From NCBI GenBank assembly GCA_030980935.1, contig GCA_030980935.1_3059.1: a stretch of 64,000 nucleotides of DNA, one strand, 5' to 3'. The notes under the pieces are model-generated. The model had not been told where the DNA came from. It ran no database searches and was given only the letters and a program-made list of their open reading frames with translations. The translations under genes and the position numbers were made by a program. The first letter of the stretch is position 1. Each line of letters starts with the position of its first letter. This DNA is from a phage. Below, piece after piece: positions 13,395 through 54,408 of this stretch.

Positions 13395-13432
13395 ATTAAT
13401 TATACCACATCCTTGTGGTAAAGTAAATTACT
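13395..13432 (-). promoter_or_regulatory. T4 early promoter upstream of rIIA.1/rIIA
   Basis: Minus-strand ATTTAC ... TGGTATAAT with 18-nt spacer; overlaps 3' end of gene 39. Confidence 0.55.
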
Positions 13433-15248
13433 GGCTCATCCATTCTTTACGAAGGTCAGCATTATCTCCCATGAGCATTTCAAAAAGCTCTTTCCAGTTC
13501 TCAGGAAGTTTAACAACATCATATACTGGATTTTGAATCATCTCACGATATTCAGATTTTTCCAAAGAGCCAAGTCCTTTAATATAACGGATGCTATGTT
13601 TAGGTAGAGCATCTTTGGCACTCTCATATTCAGCGACTGTATAAAACCATTCTTGTTTTTTACCGACCTGAGCGATGATTACAGGAGTTTTGACAAAGCG
13701 AATTCGTCCTTGCTCAAACAGTTCTGGCCAATTACTAAAAAATCCGAGCAGAGAAGGATAAATGCTTCCTAGACCATCATGGTCAGCATCAGTCATAATA
13801 GCAATATTATGATAATTCAAGTTTTCAGCTTTTTCACCGAGAACTAATCCAGTGATTGCGCAAATATCAAATAGTTCTTTGTTTTTAAGCATATCTGCAT
13901 AAGACATACCCCAACTGTTGAGAACTTTACCACGCAATGGATAACCACCATGAAGTTCTTTATCACGAACATCAATAAGATATCCGATAGCAGAATCACC
14001 CTCAGTCAAGAAAAGAGTAGTATCAGCATCTTTACCACAAAGATTCGCTTTAATATGTTTATGAACCTTAGCTTTAGAAGCCTTTTTAGCTGCTTTAGTT
14101 TCTGCTGCTTTTTCTGCCGCTAATTTACGAGCCAAGGCAGCTTCAATAATTGGCATTAAAATTGCTTCATTGTTTAAAATAGCGCGTGAAATCTTTTTAG
14201 CATCAAGTTGAATATGACTACGAATTTCACCAAATGGAGAAGTCAAACGCTCTTTAGTTTGAGAATCAAATCGCATGTTTTTCATATCACGAACAAACAT
14301 AACGATAGTCAAACATTCTTTAACACGTGCTTTAGTTACATCAATTTTGAACTTACGTTTGATTTGTGGAATAAGGTCTTCACAAATATCATCCATAACA
14401 CAGTCAATGTGATGGCCACCATTCTTAGTATGAATATTATTGACGTACGTCAACTGACGAAAACCATCCGGTGAACGACCAACCGCAATAGAACAATTTT
14501 CTTGTTCTTGAACGATAGCATGTTCATCATACTGTCGTGCGTATTTCTTAAAATTGCCCTGAACCTTTTTACCATTAAAGGTAAATTGAATATCAGGATA
14601 AACAACAGCAAGTGTCTGGAGACGATCTAGTGTAATGTCAAGATAAACTTGGGACAGCTCATTAGTTTCAAATGACATAAAATCTGGAATGAAAGTAACA
14701 CGAGTTCCTTTCCATTTTCCAGGAATAGTTTCCCAGGATTTATTTTCCATGCCATTTGAACAACGAACTACAATATTATTTTGACCATCGCCAGTTTCAC
14801 CGACAAACATCACAGAAAAAATGTTAGTTAAACTAGAACCAACACCATTCATACCACCGGTGACACGTTCTTTATCATCACCAAAGTTACCACCCGCTTT
14901 TGGAATAGTCCAAGCAGCAACTGGACCAGGAATTTCTTCACCGGTAGGTGTTTTAACCATCGCTTGTGGAATACCGCGACCGTTATCTTCAACTGTTACC
15001 TGATTATTTTTAATGGTAACATTAATTTTATTCGCGAATTTAAACTTAGTACGAATACCTTCATCGACTGAGTTATCGATAATTTCATCAATAAGCTTAA
15101 CAAGACCAGGTACATACTGAACACTTTCCCATTTACCAAACAGAAAGCGCTCATGCATTTCATTAGCAGAAGAGCCAATGTACATGCCACTACGCTTTTT
15201 GATATGTTCAATATCGCTCAGAATTTTAATTTCATTCTTAATCATCAC
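13428..15248 (-). CDS. 39: DNA topoisomerase II large subunit (GyrB-like), uninterrupted 39/60-type gene
   Basis: 606 aa single ORF with GHKL ATPase N-terminus and Toprim region; in T4, as I recall, this function is split between genes 39 and 60. Confidence 0.9.
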   Translation of the reverse strand: MMIKNEIKILSDIEHIKKRSGMYIGSSANEMHERFLFGKWESVQYVPGLVKLIDEIIDNSVDEGIRTKFKFANKINVTIKNNQVTVEDNGRGIPQAMVKTPTGEEIPGPVAAWTIPKAGGNFGDDKERVTGGMNGVGSSLTNIFSVMFVGETGDGQNNIVVRCSNGMENKSWETIPGKWKGTRVTFIPDFMSFETNELSQVYLDITLDRLQTLAVVYPDIQFTFNGKKVQGNFKKYARQYDEHAIVQEQENCSIAVGRSPDGFRQLTYVNNIHTKNGGHHIDCVMDDICEDLIPQIKRKFKIDVTKARVKECLTIVMFVRDMKNMRFDSQTKERLTSPFGEIRSHIQLDAKKISRAILNNEAILMPIIEAALARKLAAEKAAETKAAKKASKAKVHKHIKANLCGKDADTTLFLTEGDSAIGYLIDVRDKELHGGYPLRGKVLNSWGMSYADMLKNKELFDICAITGLVLGEKAENLNYHNIAIMTDADHDGLGSIYPSLLGFFSNWPELFEQGRIRFVKTPVIIAQVGKKQEWFYTVAEYESAKDALPKHSIRYIKGLGSLEKSEYREMIQNPVYDVVKLPENWKELFEMLMGDNADLRKEWMSQ

Positions 15249-15297
15249 TTATCCTCGTTTGGTTTCGGGAATATTATACTCCGGTAATCATAAAGCT

Positions 15298-15315
15298 AAA
15301 GGCCCGAAGGCCTTT
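15298..15315 (-). terminator. UUCG-tetraloop hairpin
   Basis: GGCC cgaa GGCC followed by T-run. Confidence 0.5.
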
Positions 15316-15587
15316 TATTTAAAACGAATAGTTGAATCCTTAAAGAACAGCCCAGAACATACTGTTCCTTCTACTTTCTGCCCGGTAGGTCCAATAGCAC
15401 GAAATCCAGTATGCTGGAAATCATTTTCAGAGCAACCGAACCAATTATATCCAGTGATTTCAATATTAGTAAAACCACTTGAAGACAAAACTTTGGTTGC
15501 ATTATCAGCATCAGTACATCCTACTAAAGATACTGCTAATACTAATGCCGCGATAGAACGATTAACATATTTCATAATTTCACTCAA
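15315..15587 (-). CDS. Putative lipoprotein (90 aa)
   Basis: Signal peptide with lipobox LVGC; hairpin follows the stop. Confidence 0.5.
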   Translation of the reverse strand: MSEIMKYVNRSIAALVLAVSLVGCTDADNATKVLSSSGFTNIEITGYNWFGCSENDFQHTGFRAIGPTGQKVEGTVCSGLFFKDSTIRFK

Positions 15588-15951
15588 ATTTAATGGCTTG
15601 AAGGAGACTAATAATTCTCAAGCGACTTCTTTCATCTTTAACTGTAAAAGAAAGAGGGTCACCAGATTTCATAGTGATAGTGCATTCAAAATCAAAATCT
15701 TCTGTGACTTCTTCAAAGAAGTCAAATTCTTCATCATAAATTAGAACATTACTCTGAAAACTGTGAAGAATTTTTCCATCATTTCCGGATGCTGTACTAA
15801 TCATTGTAACATTATGACCTTTCATATCTTCAACGATAAATTCGCTTGTAGATATTACAGCATTAATAGAACCATTCCTATAAATAGCAGACATTAGATA
15901 TTTCTTTTCTTCGCCTTTGCGAATACGATACTTCTTACCGATTTTAAACAT
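15580..15951 (-). CDS. Hypothetical protein (123 aa)
   Basis: Track ORF. Confidence 0.5.
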   Translation of the reverse strand: MFKIGKKYRIRKGEEKKYLMSAIYRNGSINAVISTSEFIVEDMKGHNVTMISTASGNDGKILHSFQSNVLIYDEEFDFFEEVTEDFDFECTITMKSGDPLSFTVKDERSRLRIISLLQAIKFE

Positions 15952-15953
15952 AA

Positions 15954-16130
15954 TTATCCTTTAAGTAAGTCGTAAAATCCGCCATTCACATGCTTAGGAG
16001 CAGAAGGCCGACGAGTAGACAAACGATGACATTTAGGGCAAACATCATTTTCTCGTTCAGAAATCTTTTTAATTTTTTCATATTCATGCCCGCAGTCTTC
16101 AGATTGGCATTTATAATCATACATTGGCAT
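15954..16130 (-). CDS. Small zinc-ribbon protein (58 aa)
   Basis: Hand-translated MPMYDYKCQSEDCGHEYEKI...CPKCH; CxxxxC...CxxC pattern. Confidence 0.4.
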   Translation of the reverse strand: MPMYDYKCQSEDCGHEYEKIKKISERENDVCPKCHRLSTRRPSAPKHVNGGFYDLLKG

Positions 16131-16132
16131 AA

Positions 16133-16558
16133 TTATTCCTTAAAATGAGCTTTCAGCATCTGATACAAAGACCATGCCTGTTCATTATTTTCAATAGTAA
16201 CTTTCATGACCGGGAATTCTGTGAAATCTTCTATTTGTTCTTGCTCTTTCTCTTCCTGCTCTTGCTCTTCAACTGCCTGATATGGATTTTCCACTTCATC
16301 AAAGAACCCAGCTTCGTTAGTAGAAAGCCAAATAAAGTTTTCGTCAAGGATATCACCATGTGTTGCATATCCAACTGTGCCAGTAGATGTCACAATTTTA
16401 GTAGGACGACCAAGATGGTCAACATCTAAAATTTTAAAAGGATGCATACCTAAACGGCGTGCATAGATTCCGTTATCAGTATGATCTTTAATAAAATTTT
16501 CTTGAGCTTGTTTATTTTTAAATTGATACCATTTATTAACTTCAAATCTAATAGCCAT
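16133..16558 (-). CDS. goF: Hypothetical protein, possibly GoF (141 aa)
   Basis: Size and position match T4 goF; acidic [11 protein letters not shown] tract; assignment by synteny only. Confidence 0.4.
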
Positions 16559-23261: not shown

Positions 23262-23881
23262 TCAACTACCTCAATATCATAAACTTTAAATGTTCCAAAT
23301 GAATCGTGTAATTTTTCTTTTGAAATAGAAGTTATTTTATACTTTCCAATTGGAATCATCCATTCTTGTTCATGCACAATCATCATTAAGTTATCAGTAC
23401 GCTCTGAATCTAATCCATCAGTATCTTCATATGTATACTTAAACTCAGTATTAGGAGAAGAAAGTATAATATCGCTGATATGGTCAGAATAATTAAAAGC
23501 TTTATCAGTTTTTAAACGAAGTATTGTTTCAGTGAAATATTCAGCATAAGAAAAAGAACACGCTGTGTGTAAACTAGTAGTAAATGAATCTACCCTGTTC
23601 GTTGAAAACACTTCTCCAACCTGTAAATCTTTAATAAGTTCTTTTGTCGATTTTGATATACCACGATATAATTGATAAGGCGATTTAGTTAAATGCTTTT
23701 TAATGATTTTATTCAACTGTCTGTGAAGAGCTTCATTCTTTTTGGCTTCCATACATTGCCAAAGAACAGACTGCTCGAAGTCAGTAAATTTTTCACAGAC
23801 TTTTTTATACATATCATATTGAAAATCAACGCTTTCAGCTTTTATAGATAACTGTTCAACATCTGCAGGATTAATAATCAT
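23258..23881 (-). CDS. modB: ADP-ribosyltransferase ModB
   Basis: 207 aa; R (LYRG) and EQE (HEQEW) ART motifs; 4-nt overlap with modA. Confidence 0.7.
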   Translation of the reverse strand: MIINPADVEQLSIKAESVDFQYDMYKKVCEKFTDFEQSVLWQCMEAKKNEALHRQLNKIIKKHLTKSPYQLYRGISKSTKELIKDLQVGEVFSTNRVDSFTTSLHTACSFSYAEYFTETILRLKTDKAFNYSDHISDIILSSPNTEFKYTYEDTDGLDSERTDNLMMIVHEQEWMIPIGKYKITSISKEKLHDSFGTFKVYDIEVVE

Positions 23882-23948
23882 GATAGCCTCCGTATACTTC
23901 AGAAGCTATCATATCATCGTTAGAAAGGAAAGTAAACAACTTTTTGAA

Positions 23949-24131
23949 TTATTTTGCCCAGGGAGCCCAAGGCGGAGGGTCAAGATGGTATGAAGCTAGT
24001 TCTTCTAGAAGAGCATCTGGGGCTTCAATTCCATAATTCTGTAATACTATACGGTACTCTTTCTTATAATCACTAGAATCATTCTGGATATTCGTAGAAT
24101 GATTATCTTCTAACATCTCAAATAAATCCAT
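23949..24131 (-). CDS. Hypothetical protein (60 aa)
   Basis: Track ORF. Confidence 0.4.
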   Translation of the reverse strand: MDLFEMLEDNHSTNIQNDSSDYKKEYRIVLQNYGIEAPDALLEELASYHLDPPPWAPWAK

Positions 24132-24139
24132 ATTAATTC

Positions 24140-24610
24140 CTAGCGATAAAAACCAAATTGACGATTAGCTTCAATAATCTTTCTTTCTTCTTCGGACATT
24201 CTCCAGCGTAGTCCAACATCAAAATGAGCCCAGACCATCCTAACAAATGCATTTATATCTTTAATATCTTCAATAATGAATGTTTTACTTTTAGAAGGTT
24301 GACTCGCTAATTTAACTTTATCGTCTTCAAACATGTCAAAAAGACCATATTCATGAGCTCTTTTATAGCCTTTAATAGTTAAAGCTTCAGAAGAAGAAAA
24401 TGGTGAATCTGTATTCTGCAAAATATCTTCAGTATGCTTTATAATTAGAATAACATTTTCTGGATATTTTCTTTCTTTTATATCTTTAATTAAAATATCC
24501 GGATTTTCTGCTAAAGGAATAATTAACGAGCATTTTTTATCAAGTGTATTTACTGATTTACCTTCTTTAGACATAAATTCTATTGAATATAATTTTGCTA
24601 CTTCAATCAT
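24140..24610 (-). CDS. Hypothetical protein (156 aa)
   Basis: Track ORF. Confidence 0.5.
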
Positions 24611-24763
24611 GTGATTTCCTTTTGCCTACTAATGGACCGTCAGGAATTTTGTTTTCCTGAATGTATTTCTCATTTTCTTCCATCATTTTACTACCGATTT
24701 TAAGAAGCAAATCCATTGCTTCATTTGCTTTAGCCTTTGCCTCTTCTAACGTCATATCTTTGG

Positions 24764-26079: not shown

Positions 26080-26325
26080 TTATTCACCAGTTACTTTCCA
26101 CAAATCTTCATTTGCAGAAATCCATTCAGTACGTTGATTTTCTTCATATACTGTAGAATATGCTGCTTTTTCTGAAGGGAATGTCTGATAATGAGCACCA
26201 GAAATTTTGTGAACGTCAGAATAAAGAGGGAAAGCTACAGAAATTTCCTTTCCTTCAATTTTCTTATTTCCATCTAATTTCTGCTCAAATGTTTTGATAT
26301 TAACATAACCGCGAGTACTAGCCAT
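26080..26325 (-). CDS. soc: Small outer capsid protein Soc
   Basis: 81 aa, MASTRGYVNIKTFEQ...; TATAAATA late promoter upstream; hairpin after stop. Confidence 0.85.
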   Translation of the reverse strand: MASTRGYVNIKTFEQKLDGNKKIEGKEISVAFPLYSDVHKISGAHYQTFPSEKAAYSTVYEENQRTEWISANEDLWKVTGE

Positions 26326-26355
26326 GTAATTCTCCTTTTATTTAAATTACATGAT

Positions 26356-26363
26356 TATTTATA
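26356..26363 (-). promoter_or_regulatory. T4-type late promoter TATAAATA for soc
   Basis: Reverse complement of tatttata about 30 nt upstream of soc ATG. Confidence 0.6.
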
Positions 26364-26408
26364 ATAAATTCTCGCGGCTTTTAAGTCGTCGTTTATTTAA
26401 ACGAGCTA

Positions 26409-26927
26409 TTAATAGCCTCGATCTTGACGAGCGAAGTTTTCGGCATTTTTCAGATAATAAAGTTTAAAGATTTCTTCAGCTGACATTCCAAGAGCAATGA
26501 ATTTATTCATGAAAAAGTGAAATTGGTCAATTAGTTCAAATTTAATTTCAAGTTGATCTTCAGGAGATAAATCTTGAATTTTCTTGGATTGCATTTCAGA
26601 ATAACGTTTCTTCCAAGGTTTCCATACAGCAGAAGCTTCTTTTTCACCATTACTCATACCACCAAGAGAAGTATATAGCTCGCGAGTTTCATCTGCGATA
26701 TAATCGTCTTGGTTTCGCAACCAAGCAAGAACTTCTCCTGCAGTTTCAAGTGAATCAGGATGACGATTTGTTTCTGGTTTATCATTAGCCAAACGAATCT
26801 GTAAATGCCGCTGCATGTCAAGCATAACCTGCAATGGGTCAATACTGTGCATAATATACTCAGCATATGCACGATTTGCTTTATCAACACCTTCGATCAA
26901 ATGAGCACATTCATTAAAGTGAGCCAT
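26409..26927 (-). CDS. 56: dCTPase/dUTPase gp56 (MazG-like)
   Basis: Track ORF 26409..26942; probable start at MAHFNECAHLIEG... Confidence 0.8.
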   Translation of the reverse strand: MAHFNECAHLIEGVDKANRAYAEYIMHSIDPLQVMLDMQRHLQIRLANDKPETNRHPDSLETAGEVLAWLRNQDDYIADETRELYTSLGGMSNGEKEASAVWKPWKKRYSEMQSKKIQDLSPEDQLEIKFELIDQFHFFMNKFIALGMSAEEIFKLYYLKNAENFARQDRGY

Positions 26928-26987
26928 TATTTTTCCTTTCAATTCATTAATAAGTTAAATAATTATATCATTTGAGTATGTAAGCAA

Positions 26988-28327
<1,340 letters not shown>

Positions 28328-29811: not shown

Positions 29812-30168
29812 TTAACCTCTATTCATAAAAGCATTAAAAATTTGGTCATCAATAGATGGCGCAGTAATATTTTCTGCATCATTTAGCAAATCATTAATTT
29901 CATCAGATAGCATAACACATGTACCTTTATTTCCTGTAATTGTTACTGCACAATTACGAACGTTTTCTTTATCAAATTTTAGGTTAATATTTTCGTAGTG
30001 AAAATCCTTTAATGCCGAATATATCTTTAAAATGAAATTGTCTTTTACTACAATAAACCCAACCTCACTATTAAAACGCGGTTCATGGAAACTGTAATAA
30101 ACCTTTTCATCTATAAAATCGTATGAAATTTTTTCCATTTTTAAATATGAAAATTCAGAACTATACAT
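29812..30168 (-). CDS. Hypothetical protein (118 aa), 61.x family
   Basis: C-terminus SIDDQIFNAFMNRG shared with neighbour. Confidence 0.5.
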   Translation of the reverse strand: MYSSEFSYLKMEKISYDFIDEKVYYSFHEPRFNSEVGFIVVKDNFILKIYSALKDFHYENINLKFDKENVRNCAVTITGNKGTCVMLSDEINDLLNDAENITAPSIDDQIFNAFMNRG

Positions 30169-30169: not shown

Positions 30170-30760
30170 TTAACCTTTATTCATAAAAGCATTAAAAATT
30201 TGATCGTCAATAGAAACTTTTACAATTTTGTGATCGATACCAAAATACACAGAAGCAATATTATTAATATTATTTTCAGTGAAATCTAAATCAACATCAA
30301 TATCTTTTTGACTAACGCTCAAAGGATAATTAATACGAATAATTCGATTATCTTTAACAAAGATTCCACCGACATACTCTGTGCTGCGTTTAAAGTTTAC
30401 ACGTTTCCTAAATGAAAAATATTCAGGTTCTTTATGGGCTCGACTCATAGGGCTTAAAGTATATTCCGAATATGAAATATCAAATCCTACACCTTCAATA
30501 TGAGCCAAAGTGTCATGATTAAACCAATTATAATCGTATGCCAAATCCATTAAATTGTAATATGTGAAAGGCACCGGATTAACATCATATGTTGTACCTT
30601 TAAAATCTGCCCAGGCAACGATTTCGTTATCTTTAACAATTACAAAAATTGTGCCAATAAGATATCCACGGTTATTTTCATCAGGCGTTATATTATAACA
30701 TTGTGCATCAGGAAATTTACCGTATTTAAACGGTGGATTTTTGTGCATATAATAAATCAT
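30170..30760 (-). CDS. Hypothetical protein (196 aa), 61.x family
   Basis: C-terminus SIDDQIFNAFMNKG; internal repeated VKDN motifs. Confidence 0.5.
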   Translation of the reverse strand: MIYYMHKNPPFKYGKFPDAQCYNITPDENNRGYLIGTIFVIVKDNEIVAWADFKGTTYDVNPVPFTYYNLMDLAYDYNWFNHDTLAHIEGVGFDISYSEYTLSPMSRAHKEPEYFSFRKRVNFKRSTEYVGGIFVKDNRIIRINYPLSVSQKDIDVDLDFTENNINNIASVYFGIDHKIVKVSIDDQIFNAFMNKG

Positions 30761-33052: not shown

Positions 33053-33415
33053 TTAAAAGAATTTAAACTTTTTCTTTGACCTTTTATTAAATGCATCTTG
33101 TAGTTGCATTGTAATACATTTTTCTACATGAGGAGCTAACTCAGCTTTTCTTTCTTGGTCAAGAACAGCAAAGTCCATTACGACTTTTCCATTAACCCAA
33201 TCTAATTTTGTCACATACACAATGTGTGTAGAACCATCTTCTAGTTTAATGACAATCTCCTGGATAACATTTTCCATGGCAGATTTAATTATCTTAAGAG
33301 ACTCATTAAAAAGACGTTCTTTTCTTTCTTCTTCCCCCTCCGAAGAGGGGGATTCATCGATAATTTCTAGATCTAAATCTAAATCATCTTTATTCATTAA
33401 ATTCTTCCATATCAC
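33053..33415 (-). CDS. 40: gp40-like protein (120 aa)
   Basis: Position between 41 and uvsX; acidic N-terminus; synteny-based. Confidence 0.5.
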   Translation of the reverse strand: MIWKNLMNKDDLDLDLEIIDESPSSEGEEERKERLFNESLKIIKSAMENVIQEIVIKLEDGSTHIVYVTKLDWVNGKVVMDFAVLDQERKAELAPHVEKCITMQLQDAFNKRSKKKFKFF

Positions 33416-34571
33416 TTAACTGCTCGAGGTCAGTTTCTAAATCAGCAGCTGATTTACTTTTACTTTCTGGAGATTTAAATTTTTCAACCTTTGAGTTAAT
33501 CAATTCATCAACTTCAGCTTCAACAATTTCATTACTATCAATAGCACCTAACTGATAAGCACGTTTAATAGCATCTCGGAATGGTTGATGCTTAAATAAA
33601 GGACCCCAGAATGTAGTGCAGTTGGTATCTTTTGCACGCCAAGATTTTTCTTCGCGAATCATCTCGCCGGTTTCTTCATCAAGAAATTCACGAGCATACC
33701 AACCATTTTTAGGTTTTACCACGAATCCTAATTCTAGAGCCATATCTAACAATCCAGAATAAGGATCGATACCGCCGTCAAATTTAACATCAATAAAGAA
33801 TTTACTTTTTTCTTTAACGGTACGAGATTTTTCTACATTTAGAACAAATTGATACCCTTGAAGATCAGAACCATCTTTAATTTGACGTTTACCGATAATG
33901 AATACAGTATCAGCCGAATACATTACGCCTGTACCACCTGTCATCACGGTTTTACTAAACATTTCAATTGTTTCAATTGTATGGTTAACCGCAACACATG
34001 GAATATTTTTAATGCTAAAATAAGGAGTAACAATACGGAATAATGACTTCAGTGATTTAGCACGAGTCATATCTGCCACAGATTTTTCATTCAAGGCGTC
34101 TTCCGTTTCTTTCTTAGAAGCCATATTACCGATTGAGTCGATGAATACAATAACTTTTTCACCGCGCTCAATAGCTTCAAGCTGATTCACCATATCAATT
34201 TTCAGCTGTTCAACTGACTGGATTGGCGTATGAATTACTCGTTCCGGGTCAACTCCCATGGATCGCAAATAAGCTGGAGTAATACCAAATTCGCTATCAT
34301 AGAATAGACAAACCGCGTCAGGATATTTGTTCAAATATGCCGCAACCATAGTCAAAGACATATTTGATTTAAAGTGTTTAGAAGGCCCTGCGAAAATAGT
34401 TAAACCAGACTGCATGCCGCCATCAATCGCACCAGAAATAGCAATATTAAGCATTGGGATTTTTGTACGGATTACATCCTTTTCATTAAAGAATTTAGAT
34501 GTAGTCAGTTCAGCAGTCATTTTAGAAGTGGAAGCTTTAATCAAACGGGATTTTAAATCTGCAATAGACAT
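33390..34571 (-). CDS. uvsX: UvsX recombinase (RecA/Rad51 family)
   Basis: 393 aa; RecA-fold Walker A (GPSKHFKS). Confidence 0.9.
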   Translation of the reverse strand: MSIADLKSRLIKASTSKMTAELTTSKFFNEKDVIRTKIPMLNIAISGAIDGGMQSGLTIFAGPSKHFKSNMSLTMVAAYLNKYPDAVCLFYDSEFGITPAYLRSMGVDPERVIHTPIQSVEQLKIDMVNQLEAIERGEKVIVFIDSIGNMASKKETEDALNEKSVADMTRAKSLKSLFRIVTPYFSIKNIPCVAVNHTIETIEMFSKTVMTGGTGVMYSADTVFIIGKRQIKDGSDLQGYQFVLNVEKSRTVKEKSKFFIDVKFDGGIDPYSGLLDMALELGFVVKPKNGWYAREFLDEETGEMIREEKSWRAKDTNCTTFWGPLFKHQPFRDAIKRAYQLGAIDSNEIVEAEVDELINSKVEKFKSPESKSKSAADLETDLEQLSDMEEFNE

Positions 34572-34648: not shown

Positions 34649-35497
34649 TTAATCAACTGCTATTGGATGAATAGCATTAAACTTATGAAATGCTTCTGAT
34701 TTTTCTTTACGCGAAACACACATGCGAAGAACCTTTAATGGCTCGTCTTCTTCACCCAACGATTTTCGTTTTTCAATATTCGATGTTTTCCAACGAGCTT
34801 GCTCTGGAAACTCTCTATTGATCTGCTCAAGCGCTCTATTATGTTTAGAATTACTACGAATTGAACTGCACCCGCCAGGAGCTTGTGCTTTTCCAGATAC
34901 AACCAGATATTTGAACAAGGCCAAATGCGGATAACCTTGATTAATTAAATTGAGAAATGCATACATATCTTCGCACAAATCAATTTTTCCATACCCAATT
35001 TGTTCTGTCGTAAGTTTTCCAAGGTCATACCATGTATTCGTGAATCCATATGAATTTTCACGATAATTACCCCAAGATGAAGTAATTTTAAAAATTGGTA
35101 GGCGAGCATGACCATGATAATACCCGCAATCCATGGCATCTTCGACGTATTGAATCAATTCATAGAACTGTTCATGAGTCAATTGATTGACTTTATCTAC
35201 ACATCGGCGATCATCTCTTTTTCGCATTGAACTCATACGAATAGTAGTATCATCGTCAATCATCCAGATTCGTTGACCTGCATACATATCAGTAATTGCT
35301 TTACGAGTACCGGCAATTCCGTTTACATCATCAGGAATAGTTATAATTTTAGCTCTAGACCCATAAGCATCATAATAAGCTTTTTCTTCGTGTTCACGCA
35401 CTACAATATGGGGTTCATAATCAGTCGGAAACATATCAAGGGCAGAAACTGCCCCAACACGCTGATAGCTTGGAATTACGAATTGAATCATTTCCAC
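34649..35497 (-). CDS. DxD-type glycosyltransferase at the locus where T4 carries beta-gt (282 aa)
   Basis: GT-A-like features: N-terminal IPSYQR, DxD (IWMIDDDTT); does not resemble remembered T4 beta-gt. Confidence 0.55.
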   Translation of the reverse strand: MEMIQFVIPSYQRVGAVSALDMFPTDYEPHIVVREHEEKAYYDAYGSRAKIITIPDDVNGIAGTRKAITDMYAGQRIWMIDDDTTIRMSSMRKRDDRRCVDKVNQLTHEQFYELIQYVEDAMDCGYYHGHARLPIFKITSSWGNYRENSYGFTNTWYDLGKLTTEQIGYGKIDLCEDMYAFLNLINQGYPHLALFKYLVVSGKAQAPGGCSSIRSNSKHNRALEQINREFPEQARWKTSNIEKRKSLGEEDEPLKVLRMCVSRKEKSEAFHKFNAIHPIAVD

Positions 35498-37280: not shown

Positions 37281-37299
37281 ATCTGTATCAGTAGTTGAT

Positions 37300-37365
37300 A
37301 GTTGTATAGTACCATGGAAGAACAGTCTTGTAAACAGTTTTGTGAAAATTTTTTAGGGAATTCTA
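37300..37365 (-). promoter_or_regulatory. T4 early promoter cassette
   Basis: GTTTAC (37330-37335), conserved leader identical to the 9110 copy. Confidence 0.55.
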
Positions 37366-40226: not shown

Positions 40227-40595
40227 TTAATTACCAATCGTATATTTAGGAACGAGTTTCCATTCATGTTTTTGTTTAAAAGAAATAACTCGGAAGTTAT
40301 TAGTTAAATCTTTCATAAAAGTTCTTTGACCAGGAACGATTTCAATCAGTCCCCAATCTTCTAACAGCCATGCAATCGAATCACGACGAACTTCATCTTC
40401 TTCTGTCATTTCAACTTGACGGCCATCCATACGAAGCATTTCTTTAAAATGAACAATATAGTATAGTCCTTTTTTCTGAAGAATATGACAGGACTGATAC
40501 AGAACTTTATCTTTATTATTAGCAATTCCCATACGAGTCAAAGTTTCTTTTACTTTCAGAAAATCTTCAGGTTTTTTAAGAGTAATTTCAATCAT
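40227..40595 (-). CDS. regA: Translational repressor RegA
   Basis: 122 aa, MIEITLKKPEDFLKVKETLTRMGIANN... Confidence 0.9.
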   Translation of the reverse strand: MIEITLKKPEDFLKVKETLTRMGIANNKDKVLYQSCHILQKKGLYYIVHFKEMLRMDGRQVEMTEEDEVRRDSIAWLLEDWGLIEIVPGQRTFMKDLTNNFRVISFKQKHEWKLVPKYTIGN

Positions 40596-40596
40596 T

Positions 40597-41160
40597 TTAC
40601 CATTCCAATGCTAGTTTTTTGAGTTGTTTCTGTTCTTTTACGTTCTTAGTCACTTCTTTCAAAAAATCATCCGTGACTAATCCTTTAAGTTCTTTTAATA
40701 CTAAAGGCAGTTTTCCATTTTTAGTAAGAATTGATTTATAGTTAATTGCATCATTTGTATTAACTTGATACCGCTTAGCAAGTAACTTAATAATCAATAC
40801 TTCGGTGGAATCTTCAACTAGTTTTGCCCATTTACCATATCTTTTACCACGAGGAACTGCAGCCATTAGATAATTAAAATGAGCTTCATCGCTTAAACCT
40901 GATCCAATTAAATTCATAGCATATACAGCTGGCATGCACTCCGGAAATTGTGATAATGCATTTTCAACCATGAATTTTGAATAATCTTTTTGAGCAATAG
41001 AGCATTTAGTTTTATTATTAATAGCTCCAATTATTTCAAAAAACTCATTTTCAGCTTTTTCTTTAAAAGAATCAGCAGCAGATTGGACAGCTGTCCAATC
41101 TTTTGAATACCAAGCAACTTGATGCTCGTTTAATTGAATATCATCTTCAAATAAGCTCAT
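40597..41160 (-). CDS. 62: Clamp loader small subunit gp62
   Basis: Track ORF 40597..41181 trimmed to MSLFEDDIQ... start (187 aa). Confidence 0.8.
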
Positions 41161-41161
41161 A

Positions 41162-42121
41162 TCACTTCCACTGCATTTCACATGCTAACTGAATGAAAAG
41201 ATAAGCTAGATGCAATTCAGTATTAGCTGCAATACCATGATACTGATTATTTTCGCCGACAATTTCGTACATACGAATAATACTTTGTGGAGTTACACGT
41301 GAATAGATTTCTTCGGCAAGTTTACCCACGAACCACGAATAATCGGCTGCGTATTTTGGTGCTAAAGCTCTGAGTTGTTTAACATCTTTATTTTTGAGAG
41401 ACTCAAGAACATCATCAATAGCACCACGATCGTTAGTAACCAGTGATAAAATACCAGCATCCAAAACACCTTTAGATGAATAACTATCGAGCTCGCCAAT
41501 AGTTTTACGAAAATCAGGAAAATTCTTTTTAACCAAAGCTGCTACAACTTTCATATCAGCTATAGCAATTCCTTCATGCTTACAGATTTCAGTCAACCGA
41601 CGAATCATCTGCTTCATCATTTCAATTTTATCTTCATCGGTCGGTTGACCGAATGTGATAACTCGACAGCGTGACTGAAGCGGTTTAATAATACCATCAA
41701 TATTGTTAGCAGTAATAATAATACTACAGTTTGAACTATAAGCTTCCATAAAGGAACGAAGATGTCGCTGAGATTCTGCTAAACCTGAACGGTCAAATTC
41801 ATCAATAACAATTACCTTTTGACGACCATCAAATGAAGCGGCGCTGGCAAAATTAGTCAAAGGACCACGAACGAAATCAATTTTACAATCTGATCCATTC
41901 ACAAACATCATATCAGCATTTACATCATGACACAATGCTTTTGCTACAGTTGTTTTACCTGTTCCTGGAGAAGGAGAATGAAGAATAATATGTGGAATCT
42001 TACCTTTACTTGTAATAGATTTAAAGGTTTCTTTATCAAAGGCGGGAAGAATACATTCATCGATAGTAGATGGACGATATTTCTGTTCAAGAATGTGTTC
42101 TTTTTCATTTACGGTAATCAT
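41162..42121 (-). CDS. 44: Clamp loader ATPase subunit gp44
   Basis: AAA+ Walker A SPGTGKTT; trimmed to MITVNEKEH... start. Confidence 0.85.
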
Positions 42122-43304: not shown

Positions 43305-43313
43305 AATACACCT

Positions 43314-43502
43314 TTAGTCATAATAATCAGTAACAGTCCAAGCTTCATTTCTATTGGACATTATTTTTGTATATTCTGCTTTAAATGCATTCCTAAGCAT
43401 AGATTCAGTAACTATATGCTCTTCATTAGAAAAATTATTTCTCAGAATATATCGTTTTATTTCAGGAAAAGTTAATAGATGCTGTCCAGTTGAATATTCC
43501 AT
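43314..43502 (-). CDS. Hypothetical protein (62 aa)
   Basis: Track ORF. Confidence 0.45.
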   Translation of the reverse strand: MEYSTGQHLLTFPEIKRYILRNNFSNEEHIVTESMLRNAFKAEYTKIMSNRNEAWTVTDYYD

Positions 43503-43557
43503 GTTTTTCCTCCATAGAGATTATACTCTAATAAATTAAAGCATAATCTCTTATAAA

Positions 43558-45240
43558 TTAAACTATTACAGTAAATCGACCAACTTTCTTCATTTGAAGA
43601 TGCTGACCATATGCTTGTGGGTCATGGTCTCTATGCGAAATAACAAAAACATTAGTATTTTTTAAACTATCTAAAATAGTTGAAATAGCTTTTACACCTT
43701 CAACGTCGGTCGCTGAATCAAAAACTTCATCAAGAATTAGTGTGTTTATTTTAACACCTGAAACTTTTTCAGCAATATCACGCCAAGTAAATAAAAGAGC
43801 AATATCAATTCGCGCTTTTTCACCTTGACTGAATGAAGCATAACTAAAATCTTCGCGACCACGGGATTTAATTGTCTCATTAAATTCTTCATCTAATGTA
43901 AACACATAATCCGCTTCCATTATTTTAAGATAATGGTTAATCTGCTTATTAAATAATGGAATGTACTTTTTAATAATAGCACCTTTAATACCAGAATCTT
44001 TGAGCATATCAGTCAAAATTCCTCGGTGGTATTTTTCCATTACTAAATTAGTTTTTGTCTTAACAATTTTATCAAGTTCTTCTTGAAGCAGTGCTATTTC
44101 ATCAGCATGGTCAATAAACTCAGAAGATGCTTTTTCTATAGCTGCTTTAACTTTTTTAGCTTTATCTACCGTCGTGATTAGAGATTGCTTTTTATTGCGA
44201 ATATCATTTGCCAACGACTGCTGAGTTTTAATATTATCTCGGTATTCATCAACAAGAACCTTTAAATTATCACGGTGTGTTGAAAGCTGTTCAAACGAAT
44301 GCGTACATTCAGAAACTTTATCTTTAATTTTAGAAACAACTTTATCACCGGAACTTAATTGCGACAAACAGGTTGGACATAATCCACCTTCGTGATACAT
44401 ATTAATGACTTTATTGTACGAGTCAATTTTTGATTTAATTAAAACTGCTTCTTGACCGATTTTATTAAATGCATCAGTCGGGTCTTCGTCTAAAACAATA
44501 TTAACTAATCTTTCATTAGCTTCTTCTATTTTCGATTTTAGCGTTCTAGCTTCTTTTGCCAAATCATCATACATATTTTGCAGACGAGTAAGATTGTCAC
44601 CCGTTAATTTTTTCTGGCGTTCAACGTTATCATTATATATTTTAATTTGTTGGATAATACTATCTTTTTTAACATCAAGCACTTGGTTCTGCGAATTTAA
44701 TTCGCGTATTAGTGCTTTATTAAGCTTATCCATTTCAGCTAATGTTCCTACCTCAAGCAGGTCTTCCACAAGCTTTCTTCGCGCAGGGGTCGACAAACCC
44801 ATGAAAGGGGTATACCCTGCTGTACCAAGGACAACAATCTGCTTGAAACTGGCATATGACATTCCGATAAGCTGTTCAAATTCTGCTTGGAAATCTTTAC
44901 TGCTGGCAGATTCATTAAGACGTGTACCGTTAACGGTGATTTCGAAAACGTTTGGTTTTTGTCCTCTTTTGATATAGTACTTTTTCTCATCATATTCCAT
45001 CCACAGTTCAACTAAAAGTTCTTTCTTATTTGTGCTGTTTATTAATTGACCTTTCTTTACATCACGAAATGGCTTGCCAAAAAGCCCAAATGTGATGGCT
45101 TCTAACATAGTAGACTTACCACCGCCATTTCGTCCAGTAATAAGAGTTTTTTGAACCCTATCTAATTGAATGTCAATAGGATTTCCACCTACTGACATTA
45201 TATTTTGATACCTAACTCGGTTTAGTTTAAAATTCTTCAC
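43558..45240 (-). CDS. 46: Recombination nuclease subunit gp46 (Rad50/SbcC-like ATPase)
   Basis: 560 aa; Walker A GRNGGGKST; coiled-coil middle; CPTC zinc hook. Confidence 0.9.
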   Translation of the reverse strand: MKNFKLNRVRYQNIMSVGGNPIDIQLDRVQKTLITGRNGGGKSTMLEAITFGLFGKPFRDVKKGQLINSTNKKELLVELWMEYDEKKYYIKRGQKPNVFEITVNGTRLNESASSKDFQAEFEQLIGMSYASFKQIVVLGTAGYTPFMGLSTPARRKLVEDLLEVGTLAEMDKLNKALIRELNSQNQVLDVKKDSIIQQIKIYNDNVERQKKLTGDNLTRLQNMYDDLAKEARTLKSKIEEANERLVNIVLDEDPTDAFNKIGQEAVLIKSKIDSYNKVINMYHEGGLCPTCLSQLSSGDKVVSKIKDKVSECTHSFEQLSTHRDNLKVLVDEYRDNIKTQQSLANDIRNKKQSLITTVDKAKKVKAAIEKASSEFIDHADEIALLQEELDKIVKTKTNLVMEKYHRGILTDMLKDSGIKGAIIKKYIPLFNKQINHYLKIMEADYVFTLDEEFNETIKSRGREDFSYASFSQGEKARIDIALLFTWRDIAEKVSGVKINTLILDEVFDSATDVEGVKAISTILDSLKNTNVFVISHRDHDPQAYGQHLQMKKVGRFTVIV

Positions 45241-45500
45241 AAAAGATTCCTTTTAATGTATCTTTTAGACCATTCTATCATATCATCATAATCTAAAAAG
45301 TATTCATCAAATTCAGCCATGCAAACAACGCCTTGTGCTGCTTTTGATGTGATATAAATTATTCCAACATATCTAGAATCTTCTTCGGTATAATCAATGT
45401 TTGCTATGAATTCATCATTAATGTCAAATGTCGAAAACTTCACAGTATGCATCCTTAATACAAGATACAGCCATATCTCGTAATGATTTAGGTGTGTCAT
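45237..45500 (-). CDS. Hypothetical protein (87 aa)
   Basis: Track ORF. Confidence 0.45.
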   Translation of the reverse strand: MTHLNHYEIWLYLVLRMHTVKFSTFDINDEFIANIDYTEEDSRYVGIIYITSKAAQGVVCMAEFDEYFLDYDDMIEWSKRYIKRNLL

Positions 45501-45687
45501 TATCTAAAATGTTGAAGTTAAAAGATACAGCCCAGTCAGTGCAGACTGTAACCTTTTTAATACAATTATCTTCAACCTCTAACGGTTCAAACCAATATTC
45601 AATAATTTCTTTATGACCAATATCATCTTTTACTTCGCATTCAAAATGCTGACTCATCATAACATTTTTAAATTCATCAAAAGTCAT
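45424..45687 (-). CDS. Hypothetical protein (87 aa)
   Basis: Track ORF; overlaps previous, start may be internal. Confidence 0.45.
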   Translation of the reverse strand: MTFDEFKNVMMSQHFECEVKDDIGHKEIIEYWFEPLEVEDNCIKKVTVCTDWAVSFNFNILDNDTPKSLRDMAVSCIKDAYCEVFDI

Positions 45688-46703
45688 TGTGTTGCCTCTA
45701 CATATAGCTGATTCGCATATTGAATAAGTGCTTCACGGTCAGAATCAGTGATGTCTGGAATTGCATTAATGTATTCTTCCATTAACGTCTGAAGAGATTG
45801 AACTTCAACTTCTTCACTGTCATCTGACTCGACAGAGTTATCAATTTTTGACACAACTCGTAATGAATGCACAACTTTTTCTAGTTCAGATTCGAACTTC
45901 GTCAGATTTTTGTCTACTTCAGTTACTATAACACGTACTGATAAATTTGTAAAATCTTTATAGTCAATTTTTCCTTTAAATGGATAATGAATTCTACGAT
46001 GCCAGGTAGTATTGTTTGGAATAAATTCCATTCGTTCTGTTTCTGTATCAAACATCCAGAACCCACGAGGGTCATTCTCGTCACCTGCAGTTAGTGTCCA
46101 TGGTGTCCCAATATATCTGACGTTAGCAGCCTCAGAGATAGTATGGAAGTGACCAGACCACACCTCTTTATAAGTCTTAAGGAAATCAGGTTCAAGACCA
46201 TGAGATTTCATTCCTTTATAAAAATAAAATCCATTCAGCTCCCAGTGACCAACACAAAAAGAAGCAGATGAAGTTTTGATGTGTTCAAGAATTTCACCAG
46301 TATTTTCTTCACACATCCAAGGAATTAAATCAATTAAACATCCGTCAAAATCTACTGTAGTAGGCTTATCATATACTTTAACATTAGGATATTTAGCCAA
46401 AAGCTCAGTAGAGGCATTTGGAGTTAAAGTATTTTTAAAGTGCATATCATGGTTTCCTACAACAGTATGTAGGGTAATACCAGCATCATCAAGCATTTGA
46501 ACTATTTCACGAGCAAACTCCATAGTTTTATGCGTGATTGCTTTTCGCACATCAAAAATATCGCCGTATTGAATCCAGGTAGTAATTCCATTTTTCTTAG
46601 AATATTCTATTGCTTGTTTAATTCCATCCAACTGAATGGATTGAACCCACTCATCATCGGCTTTAACGCCTAAATGCCAATCACCTAAATTTAAAATTTT
46701 CAT
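45684..46703 (-). CDS. 47: Recombination nuclease subunit gp47 (Mre11/SbcD-like)
   Basis: 339 aa; calcineurin-like phosphoesterase motifs (GDWH, GNHD). Confidence 0.9.
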   Translation of the reverse strand: MKILNLGDWHLGVKADDEWVQSIQLDGIKQAIEYSKKNGITTWIQYGDIFDVRKAITHKTMEFAREIVQMLDDAGITLHTVVGNHDMHFKNTLTPNASTELLAKYPNVKVYDKPTTVDFDGCLIDLIPWMCEENTGEILEHIKTSSASFCVGHWELNGFYFYKGMKSHGLEPDFLKTYKEVWSGHFHTISEAANVRYIGTPWTLTAGDENDPRGFWMFDTETERMEFIPNNTTWHRRIHYPFKGKIDYKDFTNLSVRVIVTEVDKNLTKFESELEKVVHSLRVVSKIDNSVESDDSEEVEVQSLQTLMEEYINAIPDITDSDREALIQYANQLYVEATQ

Positions 46704-46864: not shown

Positions 46865-46881
46865 AAGGGCCGAAGCCCTTT
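46865..46881 (-). terminator. UUCG-tetraloop hairpin after alpha-gt
   Basis: GGGC cgaa GCCC overlapping the stop codon. Confidence 0.5.
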
Positions 46882-48082
46882 ATTTTGTAATAATGTCAAA
46901 CTGTTCTTTAAAGCAGAAGCTTGAATCTTGGTGCTGATACAAAAATTCATATGCTTTTTCTCGCTCACGGTCATAAAGAGCTCGGTCAGATGACAGTTCT
47001 TTAATACGTTCAAATGTTGATTCCATGTCATTTTCATCAAACCAAACGATACCGCTATCATGCGAAATTAGCGGAGTATTATCAACACGGAATTTTAAAT
47101 TTTCGCCAGTAGATTTCCAAAATACCGGAATTGTTCCACATGCACCAAGCTCGAGATGAGTATATTCTAAAGAACGTTGTAGATATTTTTTATCCAACTT
47201 ACTCAACTGATAACCAAAACCGGATTTACTCATACGTTCAAGCATTTCGCTATTTACATAACGGTCAAGAATTTGCGTTGGCAAATTAGGAGCAATTTTA
47301 ATTTGGTCTACTTGATGAAGACGATAATACTCGTATGGAATTCCTTTTTCTTTAATAGGAATGAACGCTGGAGAACGTTCCAGACCTTCCATAATAGTAC
47401 TTAGTCCTGCAGGTTTAAGATGTTTTTCGTGAAAATCAAACATCTGATAAAAACCTTTCCATGTAGTCGTACGACCAATCCAACGGTTGATATTCATGTT
47501 AATTTCAGAAACATCTTTCCAGTAGGTTGATCGAACCTTCGCAATATCCATAGGAGGCTGAAAGTTATATACGGTCGGTGCTTCTTCAATATCATCAAAC
47601 AGAGAAACTGTTTCTGGATACCATTCTTTCATCAAAACTTTATTAAAATCGCCATTATCAGAATGACTAAAAATAACATCAGCTCGACGAACAGTTTCTT
47701 CTAATCCCAAATTTCGACGCAAAGAAAGAGAAGAATGGTCATGCTGATAAACTACAACACGAACAGAAGGTTTAATGTTATCAATAATTTTTTTATAGTT
47801 ATTAATAGTGTCTTCTTCAACCGAAGTAGCAGGAACTGAATTGATAATTAGAATATCACAATCATTTACCAGCTTAAGTGTTTTATCGTATTCTTTTGCC
47901 AATAAAACCGGAATTGAAAATGATTTATAATCATGCGCGCAATTACGAGTAAATGATTTATCTTTAGCATAAACCAAAGTCACTTCATGACCATTTTTAA
48001 TAAACCAATCACGTTGCTCAAGAGAAAATTTAGTTACACCGCAACCTTCAAGACCTCGAGCCATAAAAATGCATACTTTCAT
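46880..48082 (-). CDS. DNA alpha-glucosyltransferase
   Basis: 400 aa, MKVCIFMARGLEGCGVTKFSLEQRDWFIKNGHEVT..., GT-B-like; matches T4 alpha-gt. Confidence 0.85.
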   Translation of the reverse strand: MKVCIFMARGLEGCGVTKFSLEQRDWFIKNGHEVTLVYAKDKSFTRNCAHDYKSFSIPVLLAKEYDKTLKLVNDCDILIINSVPATSVEEDTINNYKKIIDNIKPSVRVVVYQHDHSSLSLRRNLGLEETVRRADVIFSHSDNGDFNKVLMKEWYPETVSLFDDIEEAPTVYNFQPPMDIAKVRSTYWKDVSEINMNINRWIGRTTTWKGFYQMFDFHEKHLKPAGLSTIMEGLERSPAFIPIKEKGIPYEYYRLHQVDQIKIAPNLPTQILDRYVNSEMLERMSKSGFGYQLSKLDKKYLQRSLEYTHLELGACGTIPVFWKSTGENLKFRVDNTPLISHDSGIVWFDENDMESTFERIKELSSDRALYDREREKAYEFLYQHQDSSFCFKEQFDIITK

Positions 48083-48133
48083 TTAATATCCTCATTGTTT
48101 TGGTTTATTTTACCAAAAATTTGTAAAGCAATA

Positions 48134-51793: not shown

Positions 51794-51795
51794 AA

Positions 51796-52008: not shown

Positions 52009-52123
52009 ATTTTACCCTTAATTGATTAACCAAGCATTGATAAGCACTAAACTATATTGCGAATAAAATTCTGGACCAAAATGAAAAATCATATCATTTA
52101 TAGTATCCATAATGTAATTCAAT

Positions 52124-52594
52124 TTAATCATGTGTCCACACCCCATCGGTATTTGACCAAAGTCGCTGATTATCTGATCCTCGCCACAGCTTTTTGGTCG
52201 GAAGATTTTTCTCATACTTCCCATCAATAATAACATCAACATATTTAAGCATTTCTAGTTGTTTAATATCTTCAAACTTATATCCTGTCCACAACCAAAT
52301 GCTTTTACTGGGATAAAGATTTTTTACTGTTTGAACGATGCAATGAATAACATCTCGGTTATCAGGATAGAGAGGGTCTCCTCCAGTTATAGTTAATCCT
52401 TCTATATAATCATTATTCAAACATTCAATTAATTGTTCTAGTGTTTCACCAGTGAATGGAATACCATTTCTAGCATTCCATGTTGATTTATTATAACACC
52501 CTTCACATTTATGCAAACAACCTGTAACGAAAAGAACGACCCTGCAACCAGGGCCATTCACAAAATCGCAAGGATAAAATCTATCATAATTCAT
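52124..52594 (-). CDS. nrdG: Anaerobic ribonucleotide reductase activase NrdG (radical SAM)
   Basis: 156 aa; CxxxCxxC cluster motif (CLHKCEGC). Confidence 0.9.
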   Translation of the reverse strand: MNYDRFYPCDFVNGPGCRVVLFVTGCLHKCEGCYNKSTWNARNGIPFTGETLEQLIECLNNDYIEGLTITGGDPLYPDNRDVIHCIVQTVKNLYPSKSIWLWTGYKFEDIKQLEMLKYVDVIIDGKYEKNLPTKKLWRGSDNQRLWSNTDGVWTHD

Positions 52595-54408
52595 TGGTGT
52601 TTAACCCTATGCATGATTTCTTTATTTTTACCGAGATTAAATCCGCGTTCGTTCGGATTTCCCAAATAACCACAAGTTCTTCTTATTGTGTTCATCTTTT
52701 TAGGATCAGTTTCTCCACAAATAGAACAAACAAACCCGTTTTCAGTAGGAGTCATTTCATGGGTACTTCCACACGTAAAACATTTATCTACTGGCATGTT
52801 AACACCAAAATAATCTAAATGTTGTGCAGCATAATCCCATACAGCCTCAAGACCTTTTAGGTTATTTTTCATATCAGGAAGTTCAACATAAGAAATGTGA
52901 CCGCCTGTCGCAATGAAATGATATGGGGCTTCGCGAGAAATCTTTTCAAACGGAGTAATATTTTCTTCTACTGAAACGTGGAAACTGTTAGTGTACCAGC
53001 CTTTATCAGTAACATCCTTTACACTTCCATATTTCTCAGTATCAAGTTTACAGAAGCGATAACAAAGGTTTTCAGCAGGTGTAGAATACAAGCTAAAAGC
53101 AAAACCAGTTCTTTCAGTCCACTGCTTAAGACGAGCATTCATTTTAGTTAAAATTTCCTGTCCAATATCACGACCGACAAGAATATTCAATTCGTGAATA
53201 CCAATGTATCCTAGGGACACTGAACTTCTACCGTTTTTAAATAACTCAATTATGTCATCATCAGGTTTAAGACGAACCCCGAATGCACCTTCTTGGTAAA
53301 GAATAGGAGCAACAGTAGCTTTAACTCCTTTTAAGGAACTAATTCTACACATCAATGCTTCAAAACATAAATCCATTCGCTCATTGAACAATTCAGTAAA
53401 TTTCTGTTCATTGAACTGTGTTCCAATATAAGAATCTAACGCAATACGAGGAAGATTCAGTGTTACAACACCGAGATTATTACGTCCATCAAGAATTTCA
53501 TTGCCAGTCGAATCTTTCCATATGCTCAAGAAACTACGACAACCCATTGGAGAAACAGGAACAGATGAACCAGTGATAACTTTATTGTTCTTAGCTGAAA
53601 TAATATCAGGATACATTCTTTTGCTTGCGCACTCTAGAGCAAGCTGTTTAATATCATAGTTCGGATCGTCTTTATAAAGATTAACACCTTCTTCAACGAA
53701 CATAACAAGCTTAGGGAAAATAGGAGTTATCCCATCACGACCGAGACCTTTAATACGATTTTTCAGAATTGCTTTCTGAATCATTCGTTCAGTCCAGTCA
53801 GTTCCTGTACCAAATGTAATTGTTACAAAAGGTGTTTGTCCGTTTGAACTAAAGAGAGTATTTACTTCATATTCATAAGCTTGGAATGCATCGTATACAT
53901 CTTTTTCTGTTTTAGATTGAGCATAATTCAACGCATCAGCGATTTGCCATTTTTCTGCATCCTCAATATGTTTTGCATAGGTGCGTTTAACATAAGGAGA
54001 AAGTACTTTATCTACATTAGCAAAAGTCGTTCCGCCGTATTGATGGGAAGCAACCTGTGCAGTAATTTGTGCCATAATTGCAGTAGCAACACCGATTGAT
54101 TTAGGAGTTTCAATCTGTGCATTACCGAGCTTAAATCCGTTCTCAAGCATTCCTTTTAAATCTACTAAACAGCAATTAGTAAATGGAAGAGCAGGGGAAT
54201 AATCAATATCATGGAAATGAATAATTCCGCTTTCATGCGCTTTCATAATAAAAGACGGGACCATATTTTTGGCAATGTGTTTAGACACAATACCAGCCAT
54301 AAGGTCCCGTTGAGTTGGAAAAACACGAGAATCTTTATTAGCATTCTCGTTCAAAAGGTCTTTATTAGTTTTATGAATCAATCCTTCAATTTCTTTTTCA
54401 ATTGTCAT
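52591..54408 (-). CDS. nrdD: Anaerobic ribonucleotide reductase NrdD, uninterrupted
   Basis: 605 aa continuous ORF with glycyl-radical C-terminus (RTCGY) and zinc-ribbon cysteines. Confidence 0.9.
   Translation of the reverse strand: MTIEKEIEGLIHKTNKDLLNENANKDSRVFPTQRDLMAGIVSKHIAKNMVPSFIMKAHESGIIHFHDIDYSPALPFTNCCLVDLKGMLENGFKLGNAQIETPKSIGVATAIMAQITAQVASHQYGGTTFANVDKVLSPYVKRTYAKHIEDAEKWQIADALNYAQSKTEKDVYDAFQAYEYEVNTLFSSNGQTPFVTITFGTGTDWTERMIQKAILKNRIKGLGRDGITPIFPKLVMFVEEGVNLYKDDPNYDIKQLALECASKRMYPDIISAKNNKVITGSSVPVSPMGCRSFLSIWKDSTGNEILDGRNNLGVVTLNLPRIALDSYIGTQFNEQKFTELFNERMDLCFEALMCRISSLKGVKATVAPILYQEGAFGVRLKPDDDIIELFKNGRSSVSLGYIGIHELNILVGRDIGQEILTKMNARLKQWTERTGFAFSLYSTPAENLCYRFCKLDTEKYGSVKDVTDKGWYTNSFHVSVEENITPFEKISREAPYHFIATGGHISYVELPDMKNNLKGLEAVWDYAAQHLDYFGVNMPVDKCFTCGSTHEMTPTENGFVCSICGETDPKKMNTIRRTCGYLGNPNERGFNLGKNKEIMHRVKHQ

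Follow-up and report, generated by a model that had tools for sequence, protein, structure and literature searches.

Probably uninvaded alleles at the sites of six T4 mobile elements in a 64-kb segment of a T4-like phage

Since the late 1980s it has been recognized that the introns and free-standing endonucleases of bacteriophage T4 are patchily distributed. When a T4-like genome lacks these elements, one may ask whether its sites were never invaded or were emptied later. That question is raised here by a stretch of phage DNA 64,000 nucleotides (nt) in length (GenBank assembly GCA_030980935.1, contig GCA_030980935.1_3059.1), called the window in what follows, in which gene 39 is unsplit, segF is missing from between soc and gene 56, and nrdD has no intron. 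A homing endonuclease acts on genomes free of its element by cutting or nicking them, and recombinational repair then copies in the element together with its flanks (PMC2988022). T4, with 15 endonucleases, is an outlier in this respect and has been called "an oddity", most related genomes carrying few (PMC2988022). We think it very probable that the window comes from a mosaic Tequatrovirus that has uninvaded (recipient) alleles at all six of the T4 element sites in the interval.

The gene order of the window is collinear with that of T4 (local blastn against NC_000866): the C-terminal half of 37, then 38, t, asiA, motA, 52, rIIB, rIIA, 39, dda, soc, 56, dam, 61, 41, uvsX, 42, 43, 45, 46, 47, alpha-gt, 55, nrdG, nrdD, 49, and nrdC.10/nrdC.11. 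The T4 alignment covers 91.6% of the window at 94.5% identity. From 4922 to 63660, the segments that align with both references are 94.8% identical to T4 and 95.9% identical to T2, and the T2 alignment covers 95.4% of this interval, at 95.9%. Collinear order and a close nucleotide match to T4, T2 and T6 place the phage within Tequatrovirus, and the window reads as the early and nucleotide-metabolism region, from the tip of gene 37 to nrdC.11, of a mosaic member of the genus. Its alignment to T4 has clean gaps at exactly six T4 elements: the mobA cassette, segF, segA, mobB, mobC, and the nrdD intron. Six of the 15 T4 endonuclease sites thus fall within the window, and the mobD site lies just past its end. 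An earlier reading of the letters alone (the sequence-only reading) had described a T4-like relative without the selfish elements of T4. It understated the case, as segA, mobB and mobC are absent too. What it stated of T4 (the split between 39 and 60, mobA, the bypass, segF and the intron in nrdD) agrees with NC_000866, the endonuclease of the intron being I-TevII, and alignment of the whole interval to T4, T2 and T6 finds the insertions in T4 and not in the window.

In the annotation of T4 (NC_000866), gene 60 is joined from two pieces across a 50-nt bypass, and 60.1 and mobA lie between 60 and 39. The window has a single GyrB-like open reading frame (ORF) of 606 amino acids (aa) here, as had been claimed. 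The ORF (13428..15248, minus strand) opens with GTG, and its second codon is the ATG that starts T4 gp39 (MIKNE...); the product is probably 605 aa long and equals T4 gp39 plus gp60. Residues 1-473 of the fused protein are 98% identical to residues 1-473 of T4 gp39, residues 472-605 are 96% identical to residues 27-160 of T4 gp60, and the reading frame is uninterrupted through DADHDG/LGSIY, the position of the 50-nt coding gap in T4. The protein matches positions 13-630 (of 641) of the GyrB profile NF004189 in one stretch. Its score of 234 bits falls short of the cut-off for bacterial GyrB (740), so it does not belong with the bacterial proteins; its alignments identify it as the T4-type large subunit of topoisomerase II in unsplit form.

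The T4 segment from 2794 to 3910, containing the gap, the N-terminal extension of gp60, 60.1, mobA, and the C-terminal extension of gp39, corresponds to just 64 nt of the window, the sole unaligned stretch between T4 flanks 2793 and 3911. A preprint on the MobA element (bioRxiv 10.1101/2022.08.31.505936) describes its insertion as removing 64 nt of the unsplit gene, among them the site at which MobA nicks T2, and the 64-nt MobA-target segment is identical between the window and T2. On either side, gene 39 is 97-100% identical to T4 right up to these 64 nt. Flanks so close to T4 might be taken to mean that the phage descends from an element-bearing T4-like genome whose elements were removed by precise deletion. 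Removal of the cassette, however, would need to restore the 64 deleted nucleotides, and the nucleotides in this place are those of T2, which points to recombination with an empty allele and not to excision.

At nrdD, the alignment with T4 breaks exactly at the intron of 1,033 nt, and T4 44815-45849 is absent from the window; the T4 insertion point falls between window positions 53871 and 53870. T4 nrdD is annotated as joined, with I-TevII inside the intron. The window gene is continuous over 605 aa, as the sequence-only reading had it, and nearly identical in its product to spliced T4 NrdD (Table 1). The product scores 906.8 bits with NF006732 (cut-off 657) and 563 with TIGR02487 (cut-off 326); full length and above the equivalog cut-off, it is confidently predicted to be a class III anaerobic ribonucleotide reductase. 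Over the 60 nt that follow the insertion point, the gene differs at one position from T2 (59/60 match) and at eight, all synonymous, from the T4 exon. These eight constitute the densest cluster of differences from T4 in the gene.

The next two sites are simple junctions. Where T4 has mobC, nrdG and nrdD overlap, and the same junction is found in T2; T6 instead has an endonuclease there. mobB (T4 37817-38679) is absent between window positions 48073 and 48098, and this junction is the same in both T2 and T6. The targets of MobB and MobC are given as unknown in Table 1 of PMC2988022. The segA site is of another sort. T4 23555-25497, comprising segA and beta-gt, has no counterpart in the window (blastn), and uvsX is followed directly by a glucosyltransferase gene, collinear with the gene annotated in T2 as beta-glucosyl-HMC-alpha-glucosyltransferase. 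The end of uvsX nearest the segA site is 72-79% identical to T4 and about 98% identical to T2.

The T4 annotation puts segF between soc and 56, and T4 15610-16270, which includes it, lacks a counterpart in the window (blastn). The spacing of 83 nt reported for this site is exact. Compared with T2, the spacer keeps ~31 nt from the beginning of soc.2, with ATA in the place of its ATG, and ~25 nt from the end of soc.1, while the ~330 nt between them are gone. To judge from these remnants, the spacer is a deletion scar of a T2-type soc.1/soc.2 module and not a pristine empty site; a separate event, a deletion of about 330 base pairs (bp), would have removed the module. In an evenly spaced sample of the matching records, about one in three has the compact junction. 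Shigella phages SH7 (KX828711) and SHFML-11 (NC_030953), compared at the junction, have the same one, with an unbroken 250-bp match at 98-99% identity; over window 13-33 kb, the identity of SHFML-11 is about 95%. The site between soc and 56 thus has at least three alternative occupants: segF, soc.1/soc.2, and the deletion scar.

The genes on the two sides of the spacer have different affinities. Soc is near that of T4, with one additional C-terminal residue, and clearly unlike that of T2. gp56 has 98.3% amino acid identity to T2 and 69.8% to T4, and the nucleotide identity of the gene to T4 is 65-76% over 500 bp. Since T2-type gp56 adjoins T4-type Soc, a recombination joint probably lies at the segF site. 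The target of SegF is gene 56 (Table 1 of PMC2988022). With a deletion remnant between soc and 56 and a T2/T6-type glucosyltransferase at the segA site, the insertion-free state, as read from the alignments, is not simply the state before insertion.

No match in the window to the 15 T4 homing endonucleases or to 60.1 was found by tblastn, the best E value being 0.028, inside gene 47, which is at chance level for 16 queries. Nor was an HNH or GIY-YIG domain found by Pfam and PHROGs in the ten ORFs from segments that do not align to T4; these ORFs matched AdfA, DUF7200, a glucosyltransferase, and PHROGs of unknown function. All other parts of the window align to non-endonuclease genes of T4. No Rfam family, group I introns included, was detected in the window at the gathering threshold, and the intron of T4 nrdD, run as a positive control, was recovered as RF00028 with 105 bits. 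These three kinds of search thus found no hidden or degraded endonucleases, no endonucleases of other kinds, and no introns elsewhere in the 64 kb.

The anatomy is what one would expect of recipient alleles: the junctions are contiguous, the proteins are intact, and no endonuclease ORF, intron or remnant lies near the sites. By alignment, the alleles of the target genes 39, 56, uvsX and nrdD are shown to be of the T2 type. The localized exclusion of T2 markers in crosses between T4 and T2 results from homing (PMC2988022). T4 elements would spread by cutting or nicking alleles such as these during co-infection, followed by copying through recombinational repair, and in a mixed infection with T4 the window phage would be expected to act like T2, losing local markers and gaining elements. 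The alleles expected to be lost to T4 are those of 39, 56, uvsX and possibly nrdD. As for their origin, the alleles would have come down in lineages that were never invaded, or an empty allele would have been regained by recombination; excision with precision from a genome like that of T4 is the less likely source.

The case for descent from an element-bearing genome does not end with the flanks of gene 39. The phage vB_EcoM_G50 (MK327942.1) is the best match to window 39-64 kb, at 97.8% over 25 kb, yet it has the mobA/bypass cassette, so that presence and absence flip among close relatives, and the spacer between soc and 56 shows that deletions do happen at such sites. On the other side, the host genes beside the segF, segA and mobC sites are T2-type, with 56-76% nucleotide identity to T4, and no remnants of endonucleases were detected in the window by tblastn. 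Together with the 64 nt that would have to be restored, these findings make secondary loss improbable. Assembly collapse, or a chimeric assembly of mixed T-even phages, might be suspected from the mosaic pairs (T4-type soc beside T2-type gene 56, T4-type gp38 with a T2-type glucosyltransferase) and from the lack of any database record above about 98% identity over long stretches, but it is scarcely credible, given that the reading frames are all intact, that each junction is seen again in hundreds of genomes sequenced independently, T2 and T6 included, and that mosaicism is normal in the genus.

Nothing was found that contradicts the anatomy on which the recipient reading is built; the points that weigh against that reading are confined to its inferred steps. 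The sequence seen amounts to 64 kb of a genome of about 168 kb. Susceptibility to the T4 endonucleases is predicted from identity of sequence with T2 alone. In the case of I-TevII, the T2-type nrdD site differs from the T4 exon at the eight synonymous positions, and efficient cutting of this allele is only a possibility. Finally, identity to T4 falls to 65% beside the segF site, 72% beside segA and 56% beside mobC (to T2 it is 80-96% there), and there is no such divergence beside mobA, mobB or the nrdD intron. The divergence beside the first three fits allele replacement and is suggestive of it, but at the six sites taken as a set it is not significant against the general patchiness of the alignment: it is seen at 3 of the 6, compared with 25% of random positions (p = 0.17). 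With that p value, we make no claim that divergence from co-conversion or immunity alleles is concentrated at endonuclease sites.

How unusual is the insertion-free state? A megablast search of 50,697 phage records, with window 13-33 kb and window 39-64 kb as queries, returned hundreds of Tequatrovirus genomes that match at 94-98% identity; 525 records have at least 90% identity over window 13-33 kb. No identical record was found in this search, and none exceeded about 98% over 20-25 kb. The contiguous gene 39 junction is present in 460 of 512 records (400-bp probe) and the mobA cassette in 43, in 41 of them over at least 80% of the query. For nrdD, the junction is uninterrupted in 622 of 692 records, and the T4 intron appears in 27. 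The other elements are carried by 50 records (segF), 27 (segA), 26 (mobB, near full length) and 32 (mobC). A good number of the records that carry an element belong to T4 itself or to laboratory phages derived from it. The insertion-free state is the usual, majority condition of the genus, as was already known. The window adds one more genome in the majority state, which has little importance beyond bookkeeping. Element content, as the example of vB_EcoM_G50 illustrates, varies between very close relatives.

It is doubtful, though less so than the two alternatives above, that the source phage is free of homing endonucleases and introns over its whole genome, with T2-type targets at every T4 endonuclease site. 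If it were, it would be a natural "clean" T-even phage, cleaner than T2 or T6, and a universal recipient in which the homing of every T4 element could be followed in one background.

Table 1. Features of the window that bear on the T4 element sites, in order of position, with gene 38
Feature	Coordinates	Strand	Remarks
Gene 38, T4-type tail-fibre assembly chaperone, 183 aa (predicted)	1257..1808	+	183/183 aa identical to T4 gp38
Gene 39, unsplit topoisomerase II large subunit, probably 605 aa from ATG	13428..15245	-	606 aa if GTG at 15248 is counted
Gene 39 segment of 64 nt, replaced in T4 by the ~1.1-kb mobA/60.1/bypass cassette	13764..13827	-	T4 alignment
soc, small outer capsid protein, T4-type allele	26080..26325	-	79/80 aa identical to T4 Soc
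Spacer between soc and 56, 83 nt, without segF; includes soc late promoter and ribosome-binding-site region	26326..26408	-	
Gene 56, dCTPase/dUTPase, T2-type allele, 172 aa	26409..26927	-	Probable ATG start; ORF 26409..26942
uvsX, followed directly by glucosyltransferase gene, without segA	33390..34571	-	T4 alignment
Putative beta-glucosyl-HMC-alpha-glucosyltransferase (T2/T6 type), 282 aa, in place of T4 beta-gt	34649..35497	-	phrog_842 E 2e-89; Pfam TAGT E 1e-9
alpha-gt (46880..48082) and empty mobB site just upstream	46880..48098	-	T4 alignment
nrdG, 4-nt overlap with nrdD (empty mobC site)	52124..52594	-	T4 42916-43518 (mobC) absent
nrdD, intronless, 605 aa	52591..54408	-	600/605 aa identical to spliced T4 NrdD

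Gene 38 lies in a block that is 97.1% identical to T4. A note in the T4 record distinguishes the T4 and T2 types of gp38, and that of the window is of the T4 type, the chaperone and not the adhesin; the sequence-only reading was right on this point. The C-terminal 408 aa of gp37 (window 1..1229, plus strand) are about 50% identical to residues 601-1026 of T4 gp37 and bear extended His-x-His repeats (GAHTHTVGI...). Because of this C-terminal divergence, the receptor-binding tip is probably unlike that of T4 despite the shared chaperone. The window joins a T2-like DNA-modification module (beta-alpha-glucosyltransferase, and alpha-gt as well) with T4-type gp38 and Soc, on a background that is evenly mosaic between T4 and T2.

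Some neighbouring genes differ from their surroundings in distribution. Beyond gene 39, an ORF of 123 aa (15580..15951, minus strand) occurs in T2 and T6 and has no T4 counterpart. Its matches are to phrog_622 and, at low strength (E value 9e-7), to the N-terminal portion of phrog_13003, the goF family; goF itself (16133..16558) is two genes away. Beyond gene 56, an ORF of 186 aa (27767..28327, minus strand) lies between dam and gene 61. T4 is without it, T6 is without both the ORF and dam, and its homolog in T2 is at L006 21830..22375. The ORF matches phrog_8706, of unknown function, and has a weak, sub-threshold Pfam match to the DpnII (GATC) restriction endonuclease (E value 0.0099, 15.7 bits, cut-off 23), which is curious next to the gene for a GATC methyltransferase (dam). 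NCBIfam gave nothing and the sole PDB sequence match was at chance level (E value 0.69), so the DpnII reading is unsupported.

Full-length AdfA (anti-DarT factor A, T4 61.2; PF23813, E value 1e-121) adjoins an ORF of 118 aa, the two occupying 29812..30168 and 30170..30760 on the minus strand. The match of the smaller ORF to AdfA covers just the profile's C-terminal half (E value 1e-7). Of these two genes, T4 has 61.2 alone and the T2 record the 118-aa ORF alone; both are in the window. The most divergent aligned stretch is the nrdC.2/nrdC.3 region (window 56900-58900), 71-90% identical to both T4 and T2. Between genes, a sequence of about 95 nt is repeated upstream of early genes, at 5215-5329, 9076-9174 and 37255-37354, and cross-matches five T4 intergenic sites (near 6550, 27020, 55320, 163600 and 167020) at 77-85% identity. 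This dispersed repeat is probably a shared early promoter or leader region.

T4 (NC_000866) shares with the window the gene order from 37 to nrdC.11, at 94.8% nucleotide identity over the aligned DNA, an identical gp38, a near-identical Soc, and gp39 and gp60 that together make up the fused protein. It differs in having the mobA/60.1/bypass cassette, segF, segA, mobB, mobC, and the nrdD intron with I-TevII, in having beta-gt and not the beta-alpha-glucosyltransferase gene, and in its divergent gene 56, uvsX end and nrdG end.

T6 (AP018814.1) is like the window in its contiguous gene 39 and nrdD and in being without segF, segA and mobB. It departs from the window in having soc.1/soc.2 and two insertions, one of 863 bp between 46 and 47 and the other, annotated as a homing endonuclease, of 845 bp between nrdG and nrdD, at the mobC site of T4 (insertion coordinates L009 32489..33343 and 40432..41166). 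It also lacks dam and the 186-aa ORF.

The closest parallel at the element sites is T2 (PV648364.1), which has a contiguous gene 39 of 605 aa with the identical MobA target and an intronless nrdD of 605 aa with the same type of homing site, and which is without segF, segA, mobB and mobC. T2 also resembles the window in its beta-alpha-glucosyltransferase in the place of beta-gt, its T2-type gene 56, and its homolog of the 186-aa ORF beside dam. Unlike in the window, soc and 56 of T2 are separated by about 330 bp that hold two small ORFs (soc.1/soc.2), and genes 46 and 47 by an insertion of about 860 bp, annotated as a homing endonuclease (L006 38971..39585); the T2 record is without the T4-type soc, T4-type gp38, motB.1/motB.2 and full-length 61.2 (AdfA) of the window. 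In this interval both T2 and T6 have one or more endonucleases, which leaves the window slightly "cleaner" than either. The sequence-only reading had proposed the phage as a useful comparator in the study of homing. Its use as a recipient in homing crosses is conceivable, but it would add little beyond T2, the classical recipient in marker-exclusion and homing crosses with T4, which already fills the role with the same T2-type target alleles.

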